Below are positions 9,247 through 64,000 of a DNA stretch of 64,000 bases, one piece after another (the first letter of the stretch is position 1; each line of letters starts with the position of its first letter). The stretch is taken from assembly GCA_020444475.1 (NCBI GenBank), contig JAHLKV010000004.1, positions 6,494 to 70,493 of the forward strand, given 5' to 3'. The position numbers and the translations under genes are program-made. The notes beneath the pieces are model-generated. The model did no database searches, was not told the DNA's origin, and was given only the letters and a program-made list of their open reading frames with translations. The stretch comes from a bacterium. Its GTDB lineage: Bacteria > Zixibacteria > MSB-5A5 > GN15 > FEB-12.

Positions 9247-11724
9247 CTACTTCAGTAACAGCATCTTTTTCGATTCGCTGAAAGTTCCGGCCGAGATGCG
9301 ATAGAAGTAGACACCGGTCGGGTTCTGATCGGCGTTCCACTCGATCTGATAATTACCGGCTTCCATCCTGCCATCGACCAGCGTAGCGACCTCCTGCCCG
9401 AGGACGTTGTAGATGCGAAGGGAGACGTCCGACGCACTCGGCAGCGCGAATGAGATCACGGTCGAGGGGTTGAACGGGTTCGGGTAGTTCTGCAGCAGGT
9501 CGTAGTCGTTCGGGAGGAGGCTGTTGCCCTTAGCGGCAGCAAGGGCGTCGTCACCGTCCGCCGGGAACTCAACAACGACACCACTGGGCAGGGCCGCGAA
9601 GAGGCCGAAAGCCGGACCATCGTTGTTGTCAGCCGGGGTCAGGAAACCGGAGGCGAAGACGGCAGCGGCGCCACCACCGAGACCGGACAGGTCAGCGGTG
9701 TAAGATGCCACTACGGCCGAGTTGTCGTCACCCAGAGTAACATCGAGCGTGTACGAACCGGCCGGGACCGTGATGTAATCGGTCATGTCACCGTAGGCGG
9801 CATCGTCGACGAGGGTCGCGACACCACGGGCGATAACGTCGACGGTCGGCGCGTCGGTGGCACCGTGCAGGGCGAAGAAGTCAACATTCGACATGCCATT
9901 CTCACCGGCCTGACGAGCCGGGGCTTTGGTGAACAGGGTGAAGGCGATATCGCGACCGTCCGGGTTCTCTGCGAAGGACGAAGCGACGACGCCGTTGGCG
10001 ATGGCGATGTAGGATACGTCTTTGTCGAGCGTTACCGTGAAGGTGGCAATCGCTTCATCCTGCGACATCGATCCCCTGGGAGCGACACCGATATTCAGTT
10101 CGACCTCGGCCGGCACCTGCACAAACGGGGTGGCGGTCCGGAAGGCAAAGTTCGGGATCAGCTTGCTGCCATTGACCCAGACATCAACCGTATCGGCGGC
10201 CGGATCGGCGGCGTTGTGAATGACCTGCAGGCTGGCGAAGGCCGGCTGCACGATCTTCGGCAGTTCAATAACGGAACCGTCGGGAAGGGCCACGAAGAGG
10301 CCAAACGCGGCGTCGCTGTTGTTCGCCTGGGGGTTCAGGAAGCCCGATGCGAAGACCACGGCGGTGCCGCCGCCCAGGCCGGACAGGTCGGCCTCAAACC
10401 GAGCGACTTCGGTGCGTCGATCATTGCCGGGAGTCACGACGAGTTCGTACTGGTCCGGGCGAAGGACTTTGTTGCGAGAGAATTCGCCGTAGGCCAGATT
10501 GTTAATCAGGGTTCCGTAACCCTTCTTCGATTTTCCCCGCTCGACCAGCACATCCACGTACGGAGCATCAGTGACACCGTGGAAAGCCAGCAGCTTGACG
10601 AGGTTCGGCACGGCGGACTCGCGAACTTTGTCATCGGCAAAGACCGTGAAATCAATAGAGCGACCGGACGGATTCGGTTCGAAGTTGTTGGCGTTGACAA
10701 CGCCGTTGGCGACGGCGATATAGCGCTCGCCCAGTTCAAACTTCGTCGTGAGGCTAAGGATGGTATCATCGACCGTCCAGGAGTTGGCCGGCGCGATCCC
10801 GATGTTGAGATCGACCATAGCCGGCACTTCGACAAAAGCGGTGGCCGTGCGGAAGGCGAAGTTGTCGAGGAAGAGGTCACCGTTGACGTAAATGTCTACG
10901 GTATCAGCAGCCGGGTCGGCAGCGTTGTGAATCAGCTGCAGCTCGGCGGTCTGACCGACTTCGGGCAGTGGAATCACCTGACCATCGGGCAGAGCCGCGA
11001 ACAGACCGAAGGCCGGTCCGCCGTTATTGTTATCGGGGCTCAAGAAGCCTGAGGCGAAGACGACCGCGGCACCACCGCCGAGGGCCGAGAGGTCAGCGAG
11101 ATACGAGGCGACGATAGTCTGGTCGTCACCGGCGGGCGTGATATCGAGCGTGTACTCACGCGGGAGGACCGTGCGATAGCGGGAGAACTCACCGTATTCG
11201 AGATCCCCGAAAAGAGCGCCGTAGGCCCAGCCACGAATGCGGACATCGACAGCCGGAGCGTCGGTGGCACCGTGGAAGGCGACCAGATCAGTAAAGGAGC
11301 GCCAGCGCGCTTCGGTTCTCACGTTGGCCCGAGGATAGACGGAGAAGGCGATCGAGTTACCATCAGGATTGCCGGCGAAGCCTTCGCCGAGTACGCCCGA
11401 GGCCATGGCGACATAGGCGCGGTCTTTTCTGAGTGTGAGCGGAAACTCAGCGATGACATCTTCGGCCGACATGCTTGTGCCGGGTGCGATGCCGACCGTG
11501 AATTCGACGTTCGCCGGGACGGTGATAAACTCGGTAGCCTGGCGGAAAGCGAAATCGTTGAGGAGCAGTTCGCCATCGACATAAATGTCGACTTCGGCGG
11601 CGGCCGGATCAGCCGCATTGTGGATAATCTGAAGTTGAGCGTCTTTCGCCAATCCGGCCTGGGTGAGGCCGATCATCAGAAAGATCGCTGCCAGTGTGCT
11701 CTTTAGTATCGTTGTGTATCTCAT
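9247..11724 (-). CDS. Secreted repeat protein: three tandem double-DUF4397-like units + T9SS C-terminal sorting domain
   Basis: 825 aa. Signal peptide (LAAIFLMIGLTQAGLA). Three ~230-aa units, each starting LQ(I/L/V)IHNAADPAA..VD(I/V)(Y/W)V(D/N)G and containing AFHGATDAP.VDV. C-terminus LLQNYPNPFNPSTVISFALP...GVYFYRISAGTFSESKKMLLLK. Confidence 0.85.
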   Translation of the reverse strand: MRYTTILKSTLAAIFLMIGLTQAGLAKDAQLQIIHNAADPAAAEVDIYVDGELLLNDFAFRQATEFITVPANVEFTVGIAPGTSMSAEDVIAEFPLTLRKDRAYVAMASGVLGEGFAGNPDGNSIAFSVYPRANVRTEARWRSFTDLVAFHGATDAPAVDVRIRGWAYGALFGDLEYGEFSRYRTVLPREYTLDITPAGDDQTIVASYLADLSALGGGAAVVFASGFLSPDNNNGGPAFGLFAALPDGQVIPLPEVGQTAELQLIHNAADPAADTVDIYVNGDLFLDNFAFRTATAFVEVPAMVDLNIGIAPANSWTVDDTILSLTTKFELGERYIAVANGVVNANNFEPNPSGRSIDFTVFADDKVRESAVPNLVKLLAFHGVTDAPYVDVLVERGKSKKGYGTLINNLAYGEFSRNKVLRPDQYELVVTPGNDRRTEVARFEADLSGLGGGTAVVFASGFLNPQANNSDAAFGLFVALPDGSVIELPKIVQPAFASLQVIHNAADPAADTVDVWVNGSKLIPNFAFRTATPFVQVPAEVELNIGVAPRGSMSQDEAIATFTVTLDKDVSYIAIANGVVASSFAENPDGRDIAFTLFTKAPARQAGENGMSNVDFFALHGATDAPTVDVIARGVATLVDDAAYGDMTDYITVPAGSYTLDVTLGDDNSAVVASYTADLSGLGGGAAAVFASGFLTPADNNDGPAFGLFAALPSGVVVEFPADGDDALAAAKGNSLLPNDYDLLQNYPNPFNPSTVISFALPSASDVSLRIYNVLGQEVATLVDGRMEAGNYQIEWNADQNPTGVYFYRISAGTFSESKKMLLLK
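9547..11640 (-). repeat. Intragenic tandem repeat, 3 units (aa 29-259, 260-496, 497-726)
   Basis: Unit boundaries counted from the translated protein; repeats are conserved at protein level and diverged at DNA level. Confidence 0.8.
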
Positions 11725-11849: not shown

Positions 11850-11888
11850 TTTTTTTTTGTGTCCACCCGGCCCGGATCGGGTGGACAC
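11850..11888 (-). other. T9 tract abutting a perfect 11-bp hairpin between the fasciclin and DUF4397 genes
   Basis: T9 at 11850..11858. GTGTCCACCCG (11859..11869) pairs with CGGGTGGACAC (11878..11888). In the direction of transcription (- strand) the order is hairpin then A9, so this is not a canonical intrinsic terminator. Confidence 0.4.
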
Positions 11889-11928
11889 TGTCACAAGAAC
11901 CCCCATTTTGTTCCGAAGTAGTTTCGAG

Positions 11929-12471
11929 TTACTCTTCGGTGTCAGCGTCCGGAAGAATGACCTCATCGATGACGTGGATGACGCCGTTGGAGGCCTGGAT
12001 GTCGGCTTTGATGACCTTCGCGTTGTCGATCATCACAGAGCCATCCTTCGATGTAATCGTGATGTTCTGGCCGTTGAGAGTCTGCGCCTTGTCAAGCTTG
12101 ACAACATCGGCAGCCATCACCGAGCCGGACACGACGTGATAGGTAAGAATCGCGGTCAGCGCTTCCTTGTCCTTGAGCAGGCCTTCGACAGTGCCTTCAG
12201 GGAGCTTGGCAAAGGCTTCATCGGTCGGAGCGAAAACAGTCAGGGGACCTTCGCCGTTGAGGGCATCAACCAGGCCGGCGGCCTTAACCGCAGCGACGAG
12301 AGTTGTGAAGTTGCCGGCGGCGACAGCCGTCTCAACTATAGTGCTTTTGGTCTCAGCCTTGGCCTGCGATGCTTTCGCCTTGTGATCGGCGCCGCAGTCG
12401 GCGGAAGCGGAAACTGTGAAGCCCAGGGTTAGTACCAGGGCGGCAGCGGTGGTCATACACTTTCTAAGCAT
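11929..12471 (-). CDS. Fasciclin (FAS1) domain protein, secreted
   Basis: 180 aa. Signal peptide. [48 protein letters not shown]...LTYHVV...[15 protein letters not shown] matches FAS1 hallmarks. Confidence 0.9.
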
Positions 12472-49749: not shown

Positions 49750-49836
49750 AAAAAAAAGTGTGCCTGTCCGGTAAGGGGCTTCGACGGACTCAGGGGGCAA
49801 CTAGCCGTCAACGGGGGCAACGCCGGAACAGGCACA
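49750..49836 (-). terminator. Long imperfect hairpin followed (on the - strand) by T8; possible terminator in a convergent spacer
   Basis: TGTGCCTGTCCGG (49759..49771) pairs with CCGGAACAGGCACA (49823..49836), one bulge. The ~50-nt interior contains three GGGGC motifs and an inner GACGG/CCGTC pair. A8 at 49750..49757 reads as T8 after the hairpin on the - strand. Confidence 0.4.
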
Positions 49837-57704: not shown

Positions 57705-58565
57705 ATGCTGTTCTTTGTTGGCGCAATTGTAGTTCTGGGGAGCGTGCTTGGCGGTTTCATGTGGCATGGCGGACATCCGCTGGCTCTGAATCAGCCGAAC
57801 GAGGTCCTTATTATCGGCGGCGCCGCTCTTGGCTCCCTGATCATTGCCACGCCGATGCCGGTCATCAAGGCGATAATCGGCCAATTGCTGGGTGTTCTCA
57901 CGGGCGGCGGCTACAAGAAGCAGGACTATCTGGACCTGCTGGTTATGATGTATGAGATTTTCAACGTGGCTCGTCGGGATGGTCTGGTCGGCCTCGAAAA
58001 CCATATCGAGCATCCCCACGAGAGTGAGATTCTCAAGCGATATCCCAAGTTCCTCAAAAACCACCACGCCGTGGCGTTTTTCGCCGACACCATGCGCGTC
58101 ATCATCTCCGGGTCGGTTCAGCCGCATGATCTGGAAGATCTCATGGATTCTGATCTCGAAGTGCTTCACGATGACGAAGGGCGTCCCGGAGATGCTGTCG
58201 GTGCGGTCGCCGATGCGCTCCCCGGCCTGGGTATTGTCGCGGCGGTACTTGGTATCGTTATCACGATGGCGAAACTCGACGGTGGTCCGGAGGTGATCGG
58301 CCATTCCGTCGCGGCCGCACTCGTCGGCACGTTTATGGGTGTGTTGGCCTGCTACGGTTTCGTGGGGCCGATTGCCCAGAGCATGAAGCACAAAGTGAGG
58401 GAAAACGGGCAGTACCTCGTGTGCATGAAGCAGGCGCTGCTGTCGTTCCACAAGGGCGTGGCCGGTGTAATCGCCGTGGAGTTCGCCCGGCGCTCACTGT
58501 TCGCCGATGTTCGCCCCGATTTCCTCGAACTCGAGGAGGCCTGCAACCAGGCTAAACGCAGGTAA
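57705..58565 (+). CDS. motA: Flagellar stator protein MotA
   Basis: 286 aa. FVGAIVVLGSVLGGFMWHGGHPLALNQPNEVLIIGG..., ALPGLGIVAAVLGIVITM, LVGTFMGVLACYGFVGP. Confidence 0.9.
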   Translation: MLFFVGAIVVLGSVLGGFMWHGGHPLALNQPNEVLIIGGAALGSLIIATPMPVIKAIIGQLLGVLTGGGYKKQDYLDLLVMMYEIFNVARRDGLVGLENHIEHPHESEILKRYPKFLKNHHAVAFFADTMRVIISGSVQPHDLEDLMDSDLEVLHDDEGRPGDAVGAVADALPGLGIVAAVLGIVITMAKLDGGPEVIGHSVAAALVGTFMGVLACYGFVGPIAQSMKHKVRENGQYLVCMKQALLSFHKGVAGVIAVEFARRSLFADVRPDFLELEEACNQAKRR

Positions 58566-58570
58566 TCGCC

Positions 58571-59425
58571 ATGGCTGAAAACGAACAGCCAATCATCATA
58601 AAACGTGTCAAGAAGCATGGCCACGGCCATCACGGCGGTTCGTGGAAGGTGGCGTTTGCCGACTTCATGACGGCCATGATGGCCTTTTTCCTCGTGATGT
58701 GGCTGGTCGGCCAGTCCGACCAGGTCAAGAAAAACGTCAGTGAGTACTTCCGCGATCCCGGCAAGTATCAAACAAAAGGTTCTTCGGGCGTGCTCAAGGG
58801 AAGCACCTCCGTCTTGAAGCGTGATGGTGACGCCGCCAGTACGGTAGTCAAACAGATCGTGAAGAAAGAGCACCTGCCCAGCGCCGAAGAGCAGAAGAAG
58901 ATGGCCGTCGCCGCGCAGGGCATCCTGAACGAACTGGAGAAGCAGTCCGCGTTTCAACGCCTCAAGAAAAACGTCAAACTGCAGATGACCTCCGAGGGCC
59001 TTCGGATCATCTTGAACGAGTCCGAAAACGCCCCGGCGTTTTTCGAGCCCGGCAGTTCCAAGTTGCTCCAGAAGAGCGCCATTATCCTCGTGACTATCGC
59101 CCGCCAATTGGGTCAACTCCAGAACAGCCTCGTCGTTGAGGGTCATACCGACCAATCGAGGACAGGTGATGCCGGCTATTCAAACTGGGAGCTGTCGGCT
59201 GATCGCGCCAATTCCGCGCGCCAGTTGATGGAAGTTTCCGGCCTGCGCAAGGGTCAGGTGCGGGAGGTACGAGGTTATGCGGATAAGATTCCGATGATCG
59301 CGCATTCACCGGAGGATCCCCGCAACCGTCGGGTGAGCATCCTCGTGCTCTACCAGGCACGGGAACTGGCGTACGATCAGATGGAAGTCGGCTCGGATCT
59401 GATGGCCGAGATAGGCGACCAGTAG
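58571..59425 (+). CDS. motB: Flagellar stator protein MotB (OmpA-like C-terminus)
   Basis: 284 aa. GGSWKVAFADFMTAMMAFFLVMWL contains the conserved TM Asp. OmpA-like end: GHTD...NWELSADRANSARQ...RRVSILV. Confidence 0.9.
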   Translation: MAENEQPIIIKRVKKHGHGHHGGSWKVAFADFMTAMMAFFLVMWLVGQSDQVKKNVSEYFRDPGKYQTKGSSGVLKGSTSVLKRDGDAASTVVKQIVKKEHLPSAEEQKKMAVAAQGILNELEKQSAFQRLKKNVKLQMTSEGLRIILNESENAPAFFEPGSSKLLQKSAIILVTIARQLGQLQNSLVVEGHTDQSRTGDAGYSNWELSADRANSARQLMEVSGLRKGQVREVRGYADKIPMIAHSPEDPRNRRVSILVLYQARELAYDQMEVGSDLMAEIGDQ

Positions 59426-59434
59426 CGCCCGGCC

Positions 59435-59929
59435 TCAGGGCAGATAGTGGCCCGGCAACGGAACGGTCGGGGTCTCATCCTCCCAGAAAACCGTCACCAC
59501 CCACCAGCGATTCCGATGATACACGAGCTGGATGCTGTTGATACCCCGTGTGAACGGCTCCCCGCCGTCGGCGAAGGTCGATTGGTAGGTGCTCCAGACA
59601 TGGACAATGCCGCCGAACTGCTCCACTCGTCGGGCAATCTCCTTCTCAATGAAGCCTCGTCGGAGGAATTGGCCGGCTCGAAGTACGGGACCGGATCGGG
59701 TAATGAACCCTTCGGTAGTCATGGTCTGCACTTCGGGCATGGCGCCCGGGCGTCGGGGAATCAAACGACCTGAGTCGAGGAAGAGCGAGCGAAGTCGATT
59801 CCAGTTCGGCTCAGAGCCCGGTTCGAAGGAAATCGATTCGTACAAGGCTGCGATTATACCATCGACCGATCCGATGTCGTTCGGATCCGCCACGAACCGT
59901 TCTACCGGACTGCCCGCACTACCGGTCAT
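59435..59929 (-). CDS. Hypothetical protein, NTF2-like fold suspected
   Basis: 164 aa, no signal peptide. The pattern GIIAALYESISF...SIQLVYHRNRWWVVTVFWE resembles DUF4440/SnoaL-like proteins (weak). Confidence 0.5.
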   Translation of the reverse strand: MTGSAGSPVERFVADPNDIGSVDGIIAALYESISFEPGSEPNWNRLRSLFLDSGRLIPRRPGAMPEVQTMTTEGFITRSGPVLRAGQFLRRGFIEKEIARRVEQFGGIVHVWSTYQSTFADGGEPFTRGINSIQLVYHRNRWWVVTVFWEDETPTVPLPGHYLP

Positions 59930-60055
59930 GCCTGTAACTCCCTTCCGATGAATTGGTGATAAGGTGATCTGGGACTAATCATATGAATATGATCGGCGGA
60001 GGCAAGCCTTTTGGCGAGGAATCGACATCGGCAGGGAGCCGCGGGCGAGGGCAGG

Positions 60056-61600
60056 CTAATACTGCCGGCTGAGTTCGACAGCCTTCTCGATGTCCAGCAC
60101 GCGGAACGACTCTCCGGAAAAGCGGCGGTCGTCGGCGGTTTTCAGCAGGATGTCTTTGATCGTTTCGTGGGTCAGGCTGTTGTCACCATCCCGGGCCACC
60201 ATGAGCGCGATTGTTCCGGCCACGCGCGGGGCCGCTTCGCTCGTACCGTAGCCGACACCGTAAAGGTCGGTCACGGGGAGGCCTTCACGCTCGTACGACT
60301 GACGCAGCGTTTTTGTGAGGGCGCGCGACAGGGCAACTTCGACCAGACCGCCCTCGGCGTAGATCTCCGGTTTCATCACTTCGAGTTCCGGCCGTTCGGC
60401 GCGGGTCGGTCCGCGGCTTGAAAAATGGGAAATGCCGCCGACGGGAAAACGCGAAGCGTAGACCTGTCGGGTCGAACTCGACATCAGGCGCGCCGCCTGT
60501 GAGTTCACCGAACCTACCGTCAACGCCTGCCTGACGTTGCCGCCGGTCAGGACTTTGTAGTAGTTGTCATGGTCGTCTTCGACCACCGCTTTCCCCAGCG
60601 TCTCCGGCCAGACGAAAGTGACGTACGCGTCCCAGATACCGCCCAGGTCGTTCAGGTCCTCGATTTTCACCCGCCAGCGTCCCTGCGCCAAAAGGCCGCA
60701 GTCTTCGTCGGTTCGCGGCTTCTCCGGCGGGTCCACCATCCGAATCTTCACAGCTCCCCAGCGAAGGGTATCGACGCGGTCGTTCTCTATAAACACGACC
60801 CCTTCGGGACTCGTCCTCACCACCGACTCTCCATTGGGCTCGGCCGGACCGAATACAGAACCCTCGGGCGAGACTACCGAGACCTGGTACTGTGACGAGG
60901 TCGGGTACCACAGTTCGAGATAGCAGCGATCATCGCCGGCGACGTCGGGAGTGGTGTTGATGTCGAGGCGGAACTCTCTGGTGCCGATCCCCCGAGCGTG
61001 CAGCTTGTTGTTGCCGAACCGCACCGGATAGTCCGGGTCAAAGTTGTCGTTCCCGGCGGCCACCACGACGCCTTTCAACAGGTTGCCGCCGTTCTTGTCA
61101 TTGAGCAATCGACTGAGGGCTCCTTCGAGCGGATCCGACTCGCCATCACGCGCGCCGCTTCGGTACCCATGACAGAGGCACAAGACATAGGGCAGGTTGA
61201 GTGAGTCGGCCGCGTAGCGAATGAACTGAATGCCCCAGTTGAGTTCGATATCGCTGGCGCCATCGTTGACCTTGACGACAACCAACTCAGCGTCGGGAGC
61301 AACACCGAACTTCGACCCGACCGCTACCGATGCTATTCGCGTTCCGTGTCCAAGGGTGTCGACCTGGGGACACTGGCCGGCATCGATATCGCCGCGGGTA
61401 TAGACCGAGCCGAAGCCGAGATAGGAGTTATCCCCCGTCGTATCGTTCTGGTCCCAGAGCAGCAACACTTTGCTGCTGCCGTCGCCACGGATGAAGTCAG
61501 GATGGGAGAGGTCGATACCGGAATCGACAAAGCCAATCAGGACGCGCGATTGTTCTGTTGTGGAAGGTGCAGTCTCAGTTAGTTGCGAGTCTTTTTTTTT
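60056..61600 (-). CDS. S8 (subtilisin-family) serine peptidase, catalytic portion; -1 frame relative to 61579..62064
   Basis: Catalytic Asp in VLIGFVDSGIDLSHPDF (upstream of the first possible start codon in this frame, GTG 61468), His in GHGTRIASVAVG, Ser in GTSEAAPRVAGTIALM. The frame is open back through the A9 tract. Confidence 0.85.
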   Translation of the reverse strand, partial: KKKDSQLTETAPSTTEQSRVLIGFVDSGIDLSHPDFIRGDGSSKVLLLWDQNDTTGDNSYLGFGSVYTRGDIDAGQCPQVDTLGHGTRIASVAVGSKFGVAPDAELVVVKVNDGASDIELNWGIQFIRYAADSLNLPYVLCLCHGYRSGARDGESDPLEGALSRLLNDKNGGNLLKGVVVAAGNDNFDPDYPVRFGNNKLHARGIGTREFRLDINTTPDVAGDDRCYLELWYPTSSQYQVSVVSPEGSVFGPAEPNGESVVRTSPEGVVFIENDRVDTLRWGAVKIRMVDPPEKPRTDEDCGLLAQGRWRVKIEDLNDLGGIWDAYVTFVWPETLGKAVVEDDHDNYYKVLTGGNVRQALTVGSVNSQAARLMSSSTRQVYASRFPVGGISHFSSRGPTRAERPELEVMKPEIYAEGGLVEVALSRALTKTLRQSYEREGLPVTDLYGVGYGTSEAAPRVAGTIALMVARDGDNSLTHETIKDILLKTADDRRFSGESFRVLDIEKAVELSRQY

Positions 61601-62064
61601 GAAGCCGTATGATCGCCGGCGTCGGCAGGAAAAGCCTGCCAGTCGGAACGACTCGCATGGTAGCCGCGCGGGGAAGCCGGAGCGATGGTTTCGACAAAAT
61701 CCAGATCGTCGATAGCAGGAAGTTGCTCCAGACGAACCTTCGCCGAAAAGAGATTGTCGATCTGAACCAGCGTGCGGAGATTCATCTGCTCAAACGTCGA
61801 CCGGGCGGCGGCGGTATCCGATGGCGAGGTCGTGATGAAGACTCCCACGAATGTGGTGTCACCAATCCGATCGCACATGACGGCATCACGGAGCACATCC
61901 AGCATCGCCGGATTACCGCTGATGGCCGCATAGTAGAAGTCGTCAAGTTCGTACAGGGCTTTGTCGAGCTTGCGATCTTCGCTCAGCACGGCGCCGGGCG
62001 CCAGAACCAGGCCCAGGGCGAGTACGAAAAAGACGAATATGACAATGGATGATTTCATGTTCAC
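61579..62064 (-). CDS. S8 peptidase N-terminal portion (signal peptide + pro-domain-like region), ends 3 codons after the A9 tract
   Basis: 161 aa. Signal peptide (IVIFVFFVLALGLVLAPGAVLS), I9/pro-domain-like segment (TFVGVFITTS...LFSAKVRLEQLPAIDDLDFVETIAPA). Ends ..HTASKKKTRN*. Confidence 0.75.
   Translation of the reverse strand: MNMKSSIVIFVFFVLALGLVLAPGAVLSEDRKLDKALYELDDFYYAAISGNPAMLDVLRDAVMCDRIGDTTFVGVFITTSPSDTAAARSTFEQMNLRTLVQIDNLFSAKVRLEQLPAIDDLDFVETIAPASPRGYHASRSDWQAFPADAGDHTASKKKTRN
61591..61600 (-). other. A9G homopolymer / A_AAA_AAG slippery heptamer at the frame junction of the S8 peptidase
   Basis: The mRNA sense strand reads GCU UCA AAA AAA AAG ACU CGC AAC UAA. The -1 frame continues AAA AAA AAA GAC UCG CAA CUA (KKKDSQL...) into the catalytic domain. 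Confidence 0.9.
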
Positions 62065-62310
62065 GGCCTATAATGATAGAGAACAGACCATGCGTCAACA
62101 GGATTCGGAGTCGTTAACAATCAAATAACATACCACTAACAAAATCCTAACACAACGATGACGATACTGAGCATGCCGCCTAAGCGATTGCATCAAAGCA
62201 GCTTATGCGAATAAGGCGCCGCCGCCGCGGTTTTCGGACATGGATAAGATAAGTCCATTATACGAGCTGTCGCATTCTGCCGACCGGCGCTTGAACCGGA
62301 CGCAAAAAAC

Positions 62311-62339
62311 TTGGCGGGACGTTCACATTCCCGTATACT
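62311..62339 (+). promoter_or_regulatory. Sigma70-like promoter candidate
   Basis: TTGGCG (62311..62316), 17-nt spacer, TATACT (62334..62339). Confidence 0.45.
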
Positions 62340-62364
62340 GTGCCGTCAAAGAAATAGCAAGCTA

Positions 62365-62395
62365 CCCCGGTAAGACCCTTGCCGGGGGTTTTTGT
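62365..62395 (+). terminator. Rho-independent terminator-like hairpin 40 nt upstream of mfd
   Basis: CCCCGGTAAG (62365..62374) pairs with CTTGCCGGGG (62378..62387), one G-U pair, 3-nt loop, followed by GTTTTTGTGTT. Confidence 0.6.
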
Positions 62396-62432
62396 GTTGG
62401 CTTTAGATACGCCGGAGTACATTGGACACCGC

Positions 62433-64000
62433 ATGGAAACTCGCACCGCAAAAGAAAAAAGCCTTCTGGCACAGGTTGGTCAGCGATTTGTCACCGGCCG
62501 CGCCTTCACACGTCTGACGGAATATCTGGATCAGGCCTTGCCGGGTTCGCCCTGTATGGTAGCGGGCCTGGCCGGGTCGTCATCGGCACTCCTCATTCAG
62601 TCGCTGGTGTCGACGGGCCGACGTCCGGTGATCGCCATTACGCAGCGTTCCGAAGAAGCCAATGATCTTTATGACGATCTGATGTTCCTGCTCGGTCCCG
62701 ACCGGGTGGGGCATTATCCTTCGCGGCAGATTCTTCCGTATGATTTTCGCGCTCCGGTCGGTGAGATCATGGGCAAGCGTATTTCCACCCTGGCTGGTCT
62801 CAAGACACACTCACTGGATGTGGTCGTCGCGCCCATCCGGGCCCTGATGGAGCCGACGCTTCCGGCGCACCGACTCGGGTCGACCATGATCGATCTCACC
62901 GTCGGCGATGAGCAGGACATCGACGAACTGGTAGACAAGTTAGTGGCGCTCGGTTTCCATCGCGTGCCGCTGGTGGAAGAGGTTGGCGATTTCGCCCGGC
63001 GGGGCGGACTGGTGGACTTTTTTACTCCCGGCGCCGATGCCCCGGTGCGCGTGGAGTTTTTCGGCGATGAGATCGACACCATCCGGCATTTCGATGTCGG
63101 CAGCCAGCGCACGATAGACTCACAGCAACGCGTGACGCTGCTTCCGCGGCGAGAGATTCCCATCACCCAGGAGACTCTGGAGCAGTATCTCACCGAACTC
63201 CCCGAGGACGATTCGGACTATATCCGCCGACGGTATGTCAACGATCCCGAACTTCCCGGTCTCGAGTGGCTGGCATTGCTGTTTGGTATCGAACAAGGGC
63301 GTCTGACGGATTACTTCCCCGACGAAAGCCTGCTCTTTTTCGATGGTCGCGGGACGATCGCGGGAGAGGCCGATGCGGTTTTCGACGAAGCGGTCACGCT
63401 TCGCGAGCGTCTCTCCGGCCGACTCGCGCGGTTGCCTGAGCCGAGCGAGTACTATCTGACGCGTGAAGACCTGATGGCCGTATTGGATCGATTCAAGGCG
63501 GTCGACAAGGTGCCTTTTAAGGGCGGGCGGGGTGAGACGATCAGTTTCGACTGCCGCGAGCATCCGGCGCTTGGCTCGCGCCTGGATCTGCTGGGGGAGA
63601 CGATTAGGGAGTACGAAGCGGCCGGCATGGTCTATTTTATCGCTACTGACTCTTCGGGACAGGCGGCCCGACTGGACGAGTTGATCGCGGAGAAAGCGAA
63701 GCTGGATTCGCGACCACCGATCGAGGTTGCCGACCTCAAGGGCGGGTTTGTTTGTCCGTCCGACGGCTTAGCTATCCTGACCGACCATCAGATTTTCAGC
63801 CGCTACCATCGCCGCATCCGCCGCAAGAAGTTCAAAGAGGGTGTGGCGATCGCCGACTATTCTTCGTTGAACCACGGTGACTATGTCGTTCACACCGATC
63901 ACGGTATCGCCCGGTATATCAAGCTGGAAACACTCACCGTCGATGGGCGCAATCGCGACTGCCTGCTCTTGCAGTACGCGGAAAAAGACAAGCTCTATGT
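62433..64000 (+). CDS. mfd: Transcription-repair coupling factor, 3' end beyond window
   Basis: Open frame from ATG 62433 to the window edge (not listed in the ORF track). UvrB-homology N-terminal region (VAGLAGSSSALLIQSL..., GDFARRGGLVDFFTPGADAPVRVEFFGDEIDTIRHFDVGSQRT) and the start of the RNAP-interacting domain (DYVVHTDHGIARYIKLETLTVDGRNRDCLLLQYAEKDKLY). Confidence 0.92.
   Translation, partial: METRTAKEKSLLAQVGQRFVTGRAFTRLTEYLDQALPGSPCMVAGLAGSSSALLIQSLVSTGRRPVIAITQRSEEANDLYDDLMFLLGPDRVGHYPSRQILPYDFRAPVGEIMGKRISTLAGLKTHSLDVVVAPIRALMEPTLPAHRLGSTMIDLTVGDEQDIDELVDKLVALGFHRVPLVEEVGDFARRGGLVDFFTPGADAPVRVEFFGDEIDTIRHFDVGSQRTIDSQQRVTLLPRREIPITQETLEQYLTELPEDDSDYIRRRYVNDPELPGLEWLALLFGIEQGRLTDYFPDESLLFFDGRGTIAGEADAVFDEAVTLRERLSGRLARLPEPSEYYLTREDLMAVLDRFKAVDKVPFKGGRGETISFDCREHPALGSRLDLLGETIREYEAAGMVYFIATDSSGQAARLDELIAEKAKLDSRPPIEVADLKGGFVCPSDGLAILTDHQIFSRYHRRIRRKKFKEGVAIADYSSLNHGDYVVHTDHGIARYIKLETLTVDGRNRDCLLLQYAEKDKLY

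Follow-up and report, generated by a model that had tools for sequence, protein, structure and literature searches.

Conserved recoding is rare in chromosomal, non-mobile bacterial genes, and well-supported cases such as dnaX, prfB, copA and mxiE have each taught something about the setting of product ratios. Bacterial RNA polymerase, whose hybrid spans 9-10 bp, slips efficiently on 9-nt runs of A or T, and the slippage run of Thermus dnaX is exactly A9 (PMC5009743, PMC1088944). In both Thermus thermophilus dnaX and Shigella flexneri mxiE, the A9/T9 run lies in a chromosomal, non-mobile gene and needs no flanking stimulators; in mxiE, slippage joins two open reading frames (ORFs) into a longer product (PMC1088944, PMC5009743). 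A gene of the same general architecture is described here in a 64,000-nt stretch of DNA (hereafter the window) from a bacterium of the Zixibacteria (GenBank assembly GCA_020444475.1, contig JAHLKV010000004.1, positions 6,494 to 70,493 of the forward strand). This gene encodes a predicted secreted subtilase (S8 family) that is split between its pro-domain and its catalytic domain at a run of nine A's. All relatives found share the break, even at about 30% protein identity, which points to a programmed recoding signal and not to an error. Recoding of one kind or another is highly probable at this site, and slippage at transcription is somewhat favoured as its main route.

The split gene lies on the minus strand, and its essential features are as follows.

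61579..62058, minus strand: zero-frame ORF with signal peptide, subtilase pro-domain and part of the linker; 159 amino acids (aa) from ATG 62058, alternative start GTG 62064, C-terminus HTASKKKTRN and then the stop.
61592..61600, minus strand: A9 run (T9 on the plus strand), the proposed recoding site, followed by G at 61591.
61591..61597, minus strand: A_AAA_AAG heptamer in the zero-frame phase, a possible -1 ribosomal slip site.
61579..61581, minus strand: zero-frame stop TAA, three codons past the run.
60056..61594, minus strand: remaining linker and Csp-like S8 catalytic domain in the -1 frame, ending with TAG 60058-60056.
61523..61525, minus strand: catalytic Asp codon (D181, FVDSGID), invariant in the alignment.
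61346..61348, minus strand: catalytic His codon (H240, GHGTRIAS), invariant in the alignment.
60239..60241, minus strand: catalytic Ser codon (S609, GTSEAAP), invariant in the alignment.

The two frames meet on the minus strand at GCT TCA AAA AAA AAG ACT CGC AAC TAA. The upstream, zero-frame ORF is identical to a 159-aa database protein (P0054). The -1 frame, open between 61789 and its stop at 60056, holds all three subtilase catalytic motifs, the Asp motif being encoded there as VLIGFVDSGIDLSHPDF; the oxyanion Asn (N339) is likewise invariant in the alignment of relatives. The first ATG, GTG or TTG of this frame is GTG 61468, 19 codons downstream of the catalytic Asp codon. As read from the sequence, the catalytic ORF is reachable only through one added A in the mRNA or through a -1 ribosomal slip. 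Adding one A creates a single ORF of 669 aa from the GTG or 667 aa from the ATG, which matches Pfam Peptidase_S8 (PF00082) at 1.5e-32. The trans-frame stretch of the fused zymogen would be HTASKKKDSQLTE, with HTASKKKDSQLTETAP and SKKKDSQLTE as predicted trans-frame peptides. All of this anatomy had been put forward in the original prediction, namely two frames meeting at A9, a first product ending in HTASKKKTRN, the GHGTRIAS and GTSEAAP motifs in the -1 frame, a catalytic Asp upstream of the first possible start and a single ORF upon addition of one A, and every one of these sequence statements holds. Only one other 9-nt A/T run exists in the 64 kb (two in total), and it is intergenic.

Relatives were sought in two protein databases of 5.8 and 1.84 billion proteins, the latter consisting of representatives and searched exhaustively with a hidden Markov model (HMM) profile of the upstream ORF (hereafter the N-ORF). 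Searching with the fused protein returned four close relatives of the catalytic part (97, 68, 69 and 62% identity), each of which matches just the C-terminal two thirds of the query; the 62% relative comes from a 'candidate division GN15' metagenome-assembled genome (MAG). Synteny is shared on the contigs of these relatives, with mfd, a small ORF, the S8 ORF in the -1 frame, a 164-aa ORF, motB and motA in that order. The N-ORF as query added three more sequences of the same clade, all stand-alone ORFs of 156-159 aa with the same junction. The HMM search yielded 10 protein clusters, again all stand-alone, one of which was already known. KKK forms the C-terminus of seven of the nine new clusters, KKN and KKNNSR that of one each, and in the five for which DNA was examined an S8 ORF follows in the -1 frame. 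All 15 N-ORF homologues found are stand-alone, with lengths of 155-182 aa, apart from one of 325 aa that is read through from an upstream ORF. No in-frame homologue with this pro-domain family is present in either protein database. A search of a genome collection returned the GN15 MAG already known and no further orthologue, and JGI metagenome contigs gave just distant S8 homologues with at most 30% identity over most of the protein.

These sequences represent 13 lineages in three clades, the window belonging to clade I; L048 is 98% identical to L004 (both clade I), and 11 non-redundant lineages were used for an alignment anchored on the run. All eight clade I loci (59-96% protein identity) carry [NNA][AAA][AAA][AAG] in the same phase, within a linker that is otherwise unalignable. 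The junctions outside clade I read as follows.

L049: CAA AAA AAA AAG TAA (A10, through a 5' substitution).
L050: GTA AAA AAA AAG TAG.
L051: TCA AAA AAA AAG TAA.
L052 and L053: GTA AAA AAA AAC TAA.
L054: CTA AAA AAA AAC AAC TCC CGC TAA.

Protein identity is 35-41% between clades I and II and 29-37% between clade III (L054) and either of them. The A run occupies the same position in the linker in 13/13 lineages, and the same +1 nt or -1 slip is needed in all. The run is A9 in 12 of the 13, in one codon phase ([NNA][AAA][AAA][AAN]), and A10 in the remaining one. One added A restores an ORF of 662-681 aa in each complete locus. The zero-frame stop falls 0-3 codons past the run in all lineages, and the tails that precede it are not conserved. 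No ATG, GTG or TTG lies ahead of the catalytic Asp in the second frame at any of the eight clade I loci, and the same is true of L052 and L054.

Within 18 nt on either side of the run, the conserved positions are the nine A's and the base that follows, which is G in 9/11 lineages and C in 2/11. The codon ahead of the run varies (TCA, CTA, GCA, ACA or GTA), and its final base is always A. Such codons are rare choices in the window, where AAA makes up 34% of Lys codons, A occupies 10% of third positions, and TCA, CTA, GCA and ACA account for 7, 1, 10 and 12% of their respective families. The joint codon-choice probability for four deep clade I lineages is about 1e-9 to 1e-10, so that an A9G common to these lineages is improbable by codon choice alone. 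Synonymous sites among the deep lineages of clade I are near saturation (proportion of synonymous differences about 0.7), and KKK persists in a linker that cannot otherwise be aligned. On these sequence comparisons, conservation acts at the nucleotide level. The ratio of nonsynonymous to synonymous rates (dN/dS), with each half taken in its own frame, ranges from 0.04 to 0.19 in the pro-domain part and from 0.06 to 0.18 in the catalytic part, a pattern of purifying selection by which both halves are judged functional. Programmed recoding alone explains this combination of an out-of-frame junction kept over long times, selection on both halves, the lack of an independent start and a slippery run conserved as nucleotides.

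The identity of the slipping machine is less firmly indicated. The invariant A run, the variation of the next base between G and C, and the lack of a stimulator in clade I favour RNA polymerase, and transcriptional slippage is, by a modest degree, the probable main route. All nine A's are kept, though a heptamer requires only six A's plus N, and the three 5' A's are retained at rare wobble positions; in one lineage, moreover, the run is lengthened to A10. When A9 was placed in a cassette in Escherichia coli, the frame changed in 40% of cases, as against 10% for A7 (PMC3711429). Downstream of the run, seven clade I lineages are less structured than shuffled sequences (mean folding-energy z of +0.56 and +1.12 for two intervals), and the minimum free energy downstream of the run in the window itself is -0.9 to -5.9 kcal/mol. 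Upstream, the 18 nt before the run in clade I hold no conserved purine-rich motif resembling a Shine-Dalgarno (SD) sequence, and the folding z is -0.1 to -0.6. An Rfam scan of 59000-63000 gave no relevant match, the dnaX frameshift element included. The early remark that the lack of a strong hairpin and of an SD-like stimulator speaks against efficient ribosomal frameshifting is borne out in clade I. A nascent-RNA hairpin abutting the run was also considered as a terminator-like stimulator of slippage; its small stem ends 0-2 nt 5' of the run in the window and in the 96% relative, and it was rejected as not conserved, with a mean z of -0.1, about that of shuffled sequences.

Several observations weigh against the polymerase as the main agent. 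Three metatranscriptome runs from the same samples contain no contig over the protease, just over the downstream 164-aa gene. The A9G sequence holds two overlapping heptamers in phase, A_AAA_AAA and A_AAA_AAG, so purely ribosomal slippage could also account for the nine kept A's. The base after the run is G in most lineages despite a varying amino acid in the fused frame (D, V or A). In clade II, a strong hairpin is conserved in three lineages, 9-15 nt past the AAG-stop (z of -2.1 to -4.3); a hairpin on that side can influence ribosomes and cannot influence a polymerase at the run. The tRNA genes read comprise tRNA-Met alone in the window and none at the fetched loci. Two shallow soil contigs with A10, described below, mean, further, that the length of the run may vary in the DNA itself.

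Programmed -1 ribosomal frameshifting is accordingly the strongest competitor, although as the main route it is rather unlikely. It would proceed by tandem tRNA-Lys slippage on A_AAA_AAG or A_AAA_AAA, possibly helped by the near stop. A heptamer in the correct phase in all lineages, the prevalent G, the stop 0-3 codons downstream and the clade II hairpin all suit it, and few heptamers in E. coli are as prone to shifting as A_AAA_AAG; unstimulated heptamers in that species, however, shift only a few-fold over background (PMC4066793). The efficiency of this type of slip depends on a single tRNA-Lys (PMC5009743). In the dnaX type, one tRNA-Lys with a UUU anticodon reads AAA as well as AAG. Clade I has neither an SD-like sequence nor a downstream structure, no Rfam dnaX element is matched, and the three 5' A's are conserved though superfluous for one heptamer. 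The heptamer ends in AAC in L052/L053 and in L054, which weakens the label 'dnaX-type heptamer' and implicates the A run itself. The original prediction, which gave the site this label, could show neither the age and family-wide spread of the signal nor the occasional C after the run.

The clade II hairpin complicates its subgroup. It has the form CCGACAC-N10-GTGTCGG (L049 490-520, L050 3498-3526, L051 622-650; -20 to -30 kcal/mol), encodes a conserved peptide (DTxGAVS), contains a GTG preceded by GGGGG, and exhibits no covariation. Its role may be to stimulate frameshifting or to supply an alternative start. In the same three lineages, the second frame contains a GTG or TTG ahead of the catalytic Asp, which makes this subgroup less clear-cut than the others.

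Beyond the two routes of recoding, a phase-variable contingency locus would place the switch in the DNA, with slipped-strand mispairing toggling the gene between A9 (off) and A10 (on). Homopolymer runs are hypermutable, and a secreted product belongs to the class typically subject to such control (PMC3711429). Tract length was judged here from Logan contigs. In a soil study with a strain about 97% identical to the window (depth 2-5), the contig of one run (X5) has A9, and those of two others (X6 and X7) have A10, with one extra T at 61591/61592 and an in-frame gene, at depths of 2.3x and 4.0x. These two contigs may stem from one or two fragments carrying stutter or from a real DNA length polymorphism; they are too shallow for interpretation, yet they show that A10 gets assembled when the reads have it. 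In the other runs that cover the site, the tract is A9. Four freshwater-sediment runs cover the region at a word depth of 367-647 with no difference from the window, two microbial-mat runs contain a strain about 95% identical at a depth of 104-132, and A9 also occurs in assemblies from at least seven independent samples and pipelines; six further runs (X11-X16) do not cover the site. The off frame is common to all 13 lineages, to over 25 contigs and to the six runs of high depth, with the same length in 12 of the lineages, and the on allele is absent from both protein databases. A gene that is off in all sampled populations would not keep a dN/dS of about 0.1 in its downstream half. Phase variation is, on balance, improbable.

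Still less probable is that these are two separate genes, the catalytic ORF being translated from its own start by coupled re-initiation, with the A run incidental. Gene callers annotate two ORFs everywhere, a GTG or TTG precedes the Asp in three clade II lineages, and subtilase pro-domains can work in trans (PMC10580911). Against this, the eight clade I loci, L052 and L054 offer no start codon before the Asp, the second ORF would be made without a signal peptide although the first has one, the invariant A9 at rare codons would be left unexplained, and the distant homologues are each encoded by one continuous ORF.

Homopolymers are classic sites of indel error, but neither an indel from sequencing or assembly nor a recent mutation that inactivated the gene is credible here, as A9 recurs in independent assemblies and samples at up to 647x, the break is the same in lineages down to about 30% identity, and both halves are under purifying selection. 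The other long homopolymers of the window, examined as possible signs of an error-prone assembly (C8 at 9115, T9 at 11850, A8 at 49750), are intergenic and break no ORF, and that idea was rejected. By these sequence comparisons, pseudogene, error and coincidence are excluded. The original prediction had listed three options without choosing among them. An assembly or sequencing indel is contradicted by contigs from six high-depth runs, which read A9 and not A10; an inactivating or phase-variable mutation conflicts with the off frame in all 13 lineages together with purifying selection; and expression through slippage is the option that the comparative data pick. It had also envisaged that orthologues might encode two proteins with an independent start, whereas in clade I all eight loci are split at the same A9G.

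The predicted fused protein has the domain order of a complete subtilase zymogen, as the following features indicate.

61981..62058, minus strand: probable Sec signal peptide, MKSSIVIFVFFVLALGLVLAPGAVLS, proposed from a basic N-terminus, a hydrophobic core and a small-residue c-region.
61678..61875, minus strand: pro-domain core, residues 64-129 of the fused protein, modelled as beta-beta-alpha-beta-beta-alpha-beta.
60614..61000, minus strand: beta-rich, jellyroll-like insertion in the subtilase domain, residues ~356-484, modelled as all-beta.
62070..62098, minus strand: candidate sigma-70-like promoter, TTGACG-17-CATTAT, a consensus match alone, just upstream of the ORF.

An AlphaFold2 (AF2) model of the fused protein has a mean predicted local distance difference test score (pLDDT) of 80.6. 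The pro-domain core is modelled at a pLDDT of about 90, a helix at residues 4-20, in the signal-peptide region, has low confidence, and a disordered linker spans residues 134-171 with KKK inside it at 156-158; the subtilase domain begins at residue 176. The zero-frame product would therefore consist of the signal peptide, the entire pro-domain and part of the linker. Membership in S8 is indicated by the Asp-His-Ser order, the family motifs, the PF00082 match and the subtilase fold. The top fold match in the PDB is CspB (4i0w, TMt 0.81, E 1.4e-30), matches to CspC and CspA span about 650 columns with their pro-domains included, and a sequence profile finds CspB at 3e-96 and aligns the pro-domain core with the N-terminal pro-domains of the CspC and CspA chains. 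When the N-ORF is modelled alone, at low confidence, its top Foldseek matches are subtilase pro-domains with weak E-values (0.04 or higher): the Tk-subtilisin propeptide (TMt 0.73), the furin/PC1 pro-domain and EpiP. A Pfam scan of the N-ORF gave no significant match. A distant single-ORF S8 homologue (27% identity) aligns from signal peptide to C-terminus, its N-terminus falling on the N-ORF, and this end-to-end alignment suggests that the ancestral state was one polypeptide.

The Csp germination subtilases (CspB, CspC and CspA) share with the window protein the subtilase domain, a jellyroll-type insertion and an N-terminal pro-domain. We know of no recoding in Csp genes. They occur in clostridial spore-formers, whereas the closest named relative here is a 'candidate division GN15' genome assembly; identity between the two groups is only about 20%, and the window protein differs in having a signal peptide. 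The NCBIfam Csp models score 59 and 57 bits, below their cut-offs of 1250 and 675, and scores so far under the cut-offs indicate a structural relative and not a Csp member. Judged by its model, the protein resembles the Csp subtilases in its fold and in the order of its domains and is not an orthologue of them. A jellyroll insert is a hallmark of Csp proteases, and in CspB the pro-domain remains bound and occludes the active site (PMC3567191).

Together, these data suggest that a single gene, held out of frame, encodes the pre-pro-enzyme of a secreted, Csp-like subtilase. Read in the standard way, the A9 template would yield no more than 159 aa, which comprise the signal peptide, the pro-domain and a short tail. 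Some RNA polymerases would slip on the nine-A run and generate A10 transcripts, in which the pro-domain would be fused in frame to the catalytic domain as a zymogen of 667-669 aa. A -1 slip of ribosomes on A_AAA_AAG would lead to an identical protein and may contribute to its amount. Free pro-domain is probably the cell's main product from this gene, with the full enzyme made only sometimes. Free pro-domain would then be in fixed excess over the full-length enzyme, or the protease would simply be throttled. Subtilase pro-domains act as chaperones in the folding of their own enzymes and also inhibit them tightly (PMC10580911), and free pro-domain-like proteins are known inhibitors (PMC6993865). 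We infer the predominance of the slip at transcription, its efficiency and the action of the free pro-domain as an inhibitor or chaperone in trans. More tentatively, and with some doubt, the family may possess an ancient, obligatory recoding switch that sets the ratio of free pro-domain to zymogen throughout its members, the free form being a secreted inhibitor or chaperone and the latency of the enzyme being programmed at decoding. If both products are made, enzyme and inhibitor would come from one gene at a ratio fixed by slippage efficiency. Setting the stoichiometry between a protease and its own inhibitor in this way would put recoding to a new use, and few non-mobile cases of A-run slippage in bacteria would be conserved as deeply as this family.

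Several neighbouring features accompany the split gene. The 164-aa ORF directly 3' of the protease (59435-59929, minus strand) has no Pfam or NCBIfam match and is found in every clade I locus that is long enough; it is the sole part of the region in the metatranscriptome contigs from the same samples (depth 2-7), and a functional link with the protease is possible. A motA/motB-like pair (57705-59425, plus strand; 286 and 284 aa) converges on the protease operon and is syntenic in all clade I loci, the Pfam assignments having been made on the orthologous genes of related loci. In clade II, a large protein with TPR and CHAT domains (L050 1-2912, L052/L053 1-2857) is encoded immediately upstream of the split subtilase, and the 325-aa N-ORF homologue, P0059, is a read-through product that joins the end of such an upstream ORF to the pro-domain ORF. 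The window's other T9 (plus strand; A9 on the minus strand) lies at 11850-11890 and is non-coding. It separates two genes of the minus strand, one at 11929-12471 (a 180-aa ORF) and one at 9247-11724 (a repeat protein of 825 aa), and directly beside it in this spacer is an inverted repeat rich in GC, GTGTCCACCCGG...CGGGTGGACAC. Because this hairpin is followed by A's and not U's on the minus-strand transcript, it is not a canonical terminator for those genes.

Public annotation divides the family into two entries. In GCA_014727815.1 (WJMS01000174.1), for example, a hypothetical protein of about 155 aa stands beside an 'S8 family serine peptidase', the latter called at 409-493 aa across such records, and in clade I the annotated peptidase begins downstream of the catalytic Asp. 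Truncated S8 calls that are missing the catalytic Asp or the signal peptide imply that the family is mis-annotated wherever it is found. No report of a recoded subtilase was found in the searchable literature; within that literature, the class of mechanism is known and the subtilase family is not previously reported for it. The locus is distinguished by the depth of its conservation, by its occurrence in a non-mobile gene and by a break that falls exactly between pro-domain and enzyme. Its relatives, which have A9G, A9C or A10G and in which a downstream hairpin is present or absent, also form a natural series in which slippage by the polymerase could be told apart from slippage by the ribosome.

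Among the described systems, E. coli dnaX has the same heptamer in the same phase and gives two N-terminally identical products. It differs in having an SD sequence and a stem-loop, elements that in the dnaX type lie about 10 nt 5' and 5-9 nt 3' of the heptamer, whereas the clade I subtilase has neither, matches no Rfam element and has AAC-ended counterparts in two relatives; moreover, the frameshift truncates the product of E. coli dnaX and lengthens that of the subtilase. The two-ORF dnaX of Chlorobi and the Mg-chelatase poly-A clusters are, similarly, non-mobile two-ORF genes joined at conserved runs of 7-11 nt (PMC3711429). The poly-A clusters of Antonov et al. (2013) belong to other protein families, the main text of that study mentioning no protease, peptidase or subtilisin cluster (PMC3711429), and the subtilase is set apart from them by a break exactly at the linker between pro-domain and catalytic domain. 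Stand-alone inhibitors of the MEROPS I9 type, such as the Plasmodium SUB1 propeptide-like protein (PMC6993865), offer a parallel for a free pro-domain-like protein as a possible inhibitor or chaperone in trans. They are encoded by separate genes, whereas here pro-domain and enzyme would come from one gene through recoding, with inhibition being putative. Thermus dnaX and mxiE remain the nearest likenesses. The subtilase belongs to a different gene family, and its site is kept across clades at about 30-40% identity. The direction of the switch also distinguishes it from Thermus dnaX: there the templated mRNA encodes the long product and slippage yields the short one, and in the subtilase the reverse would hold.

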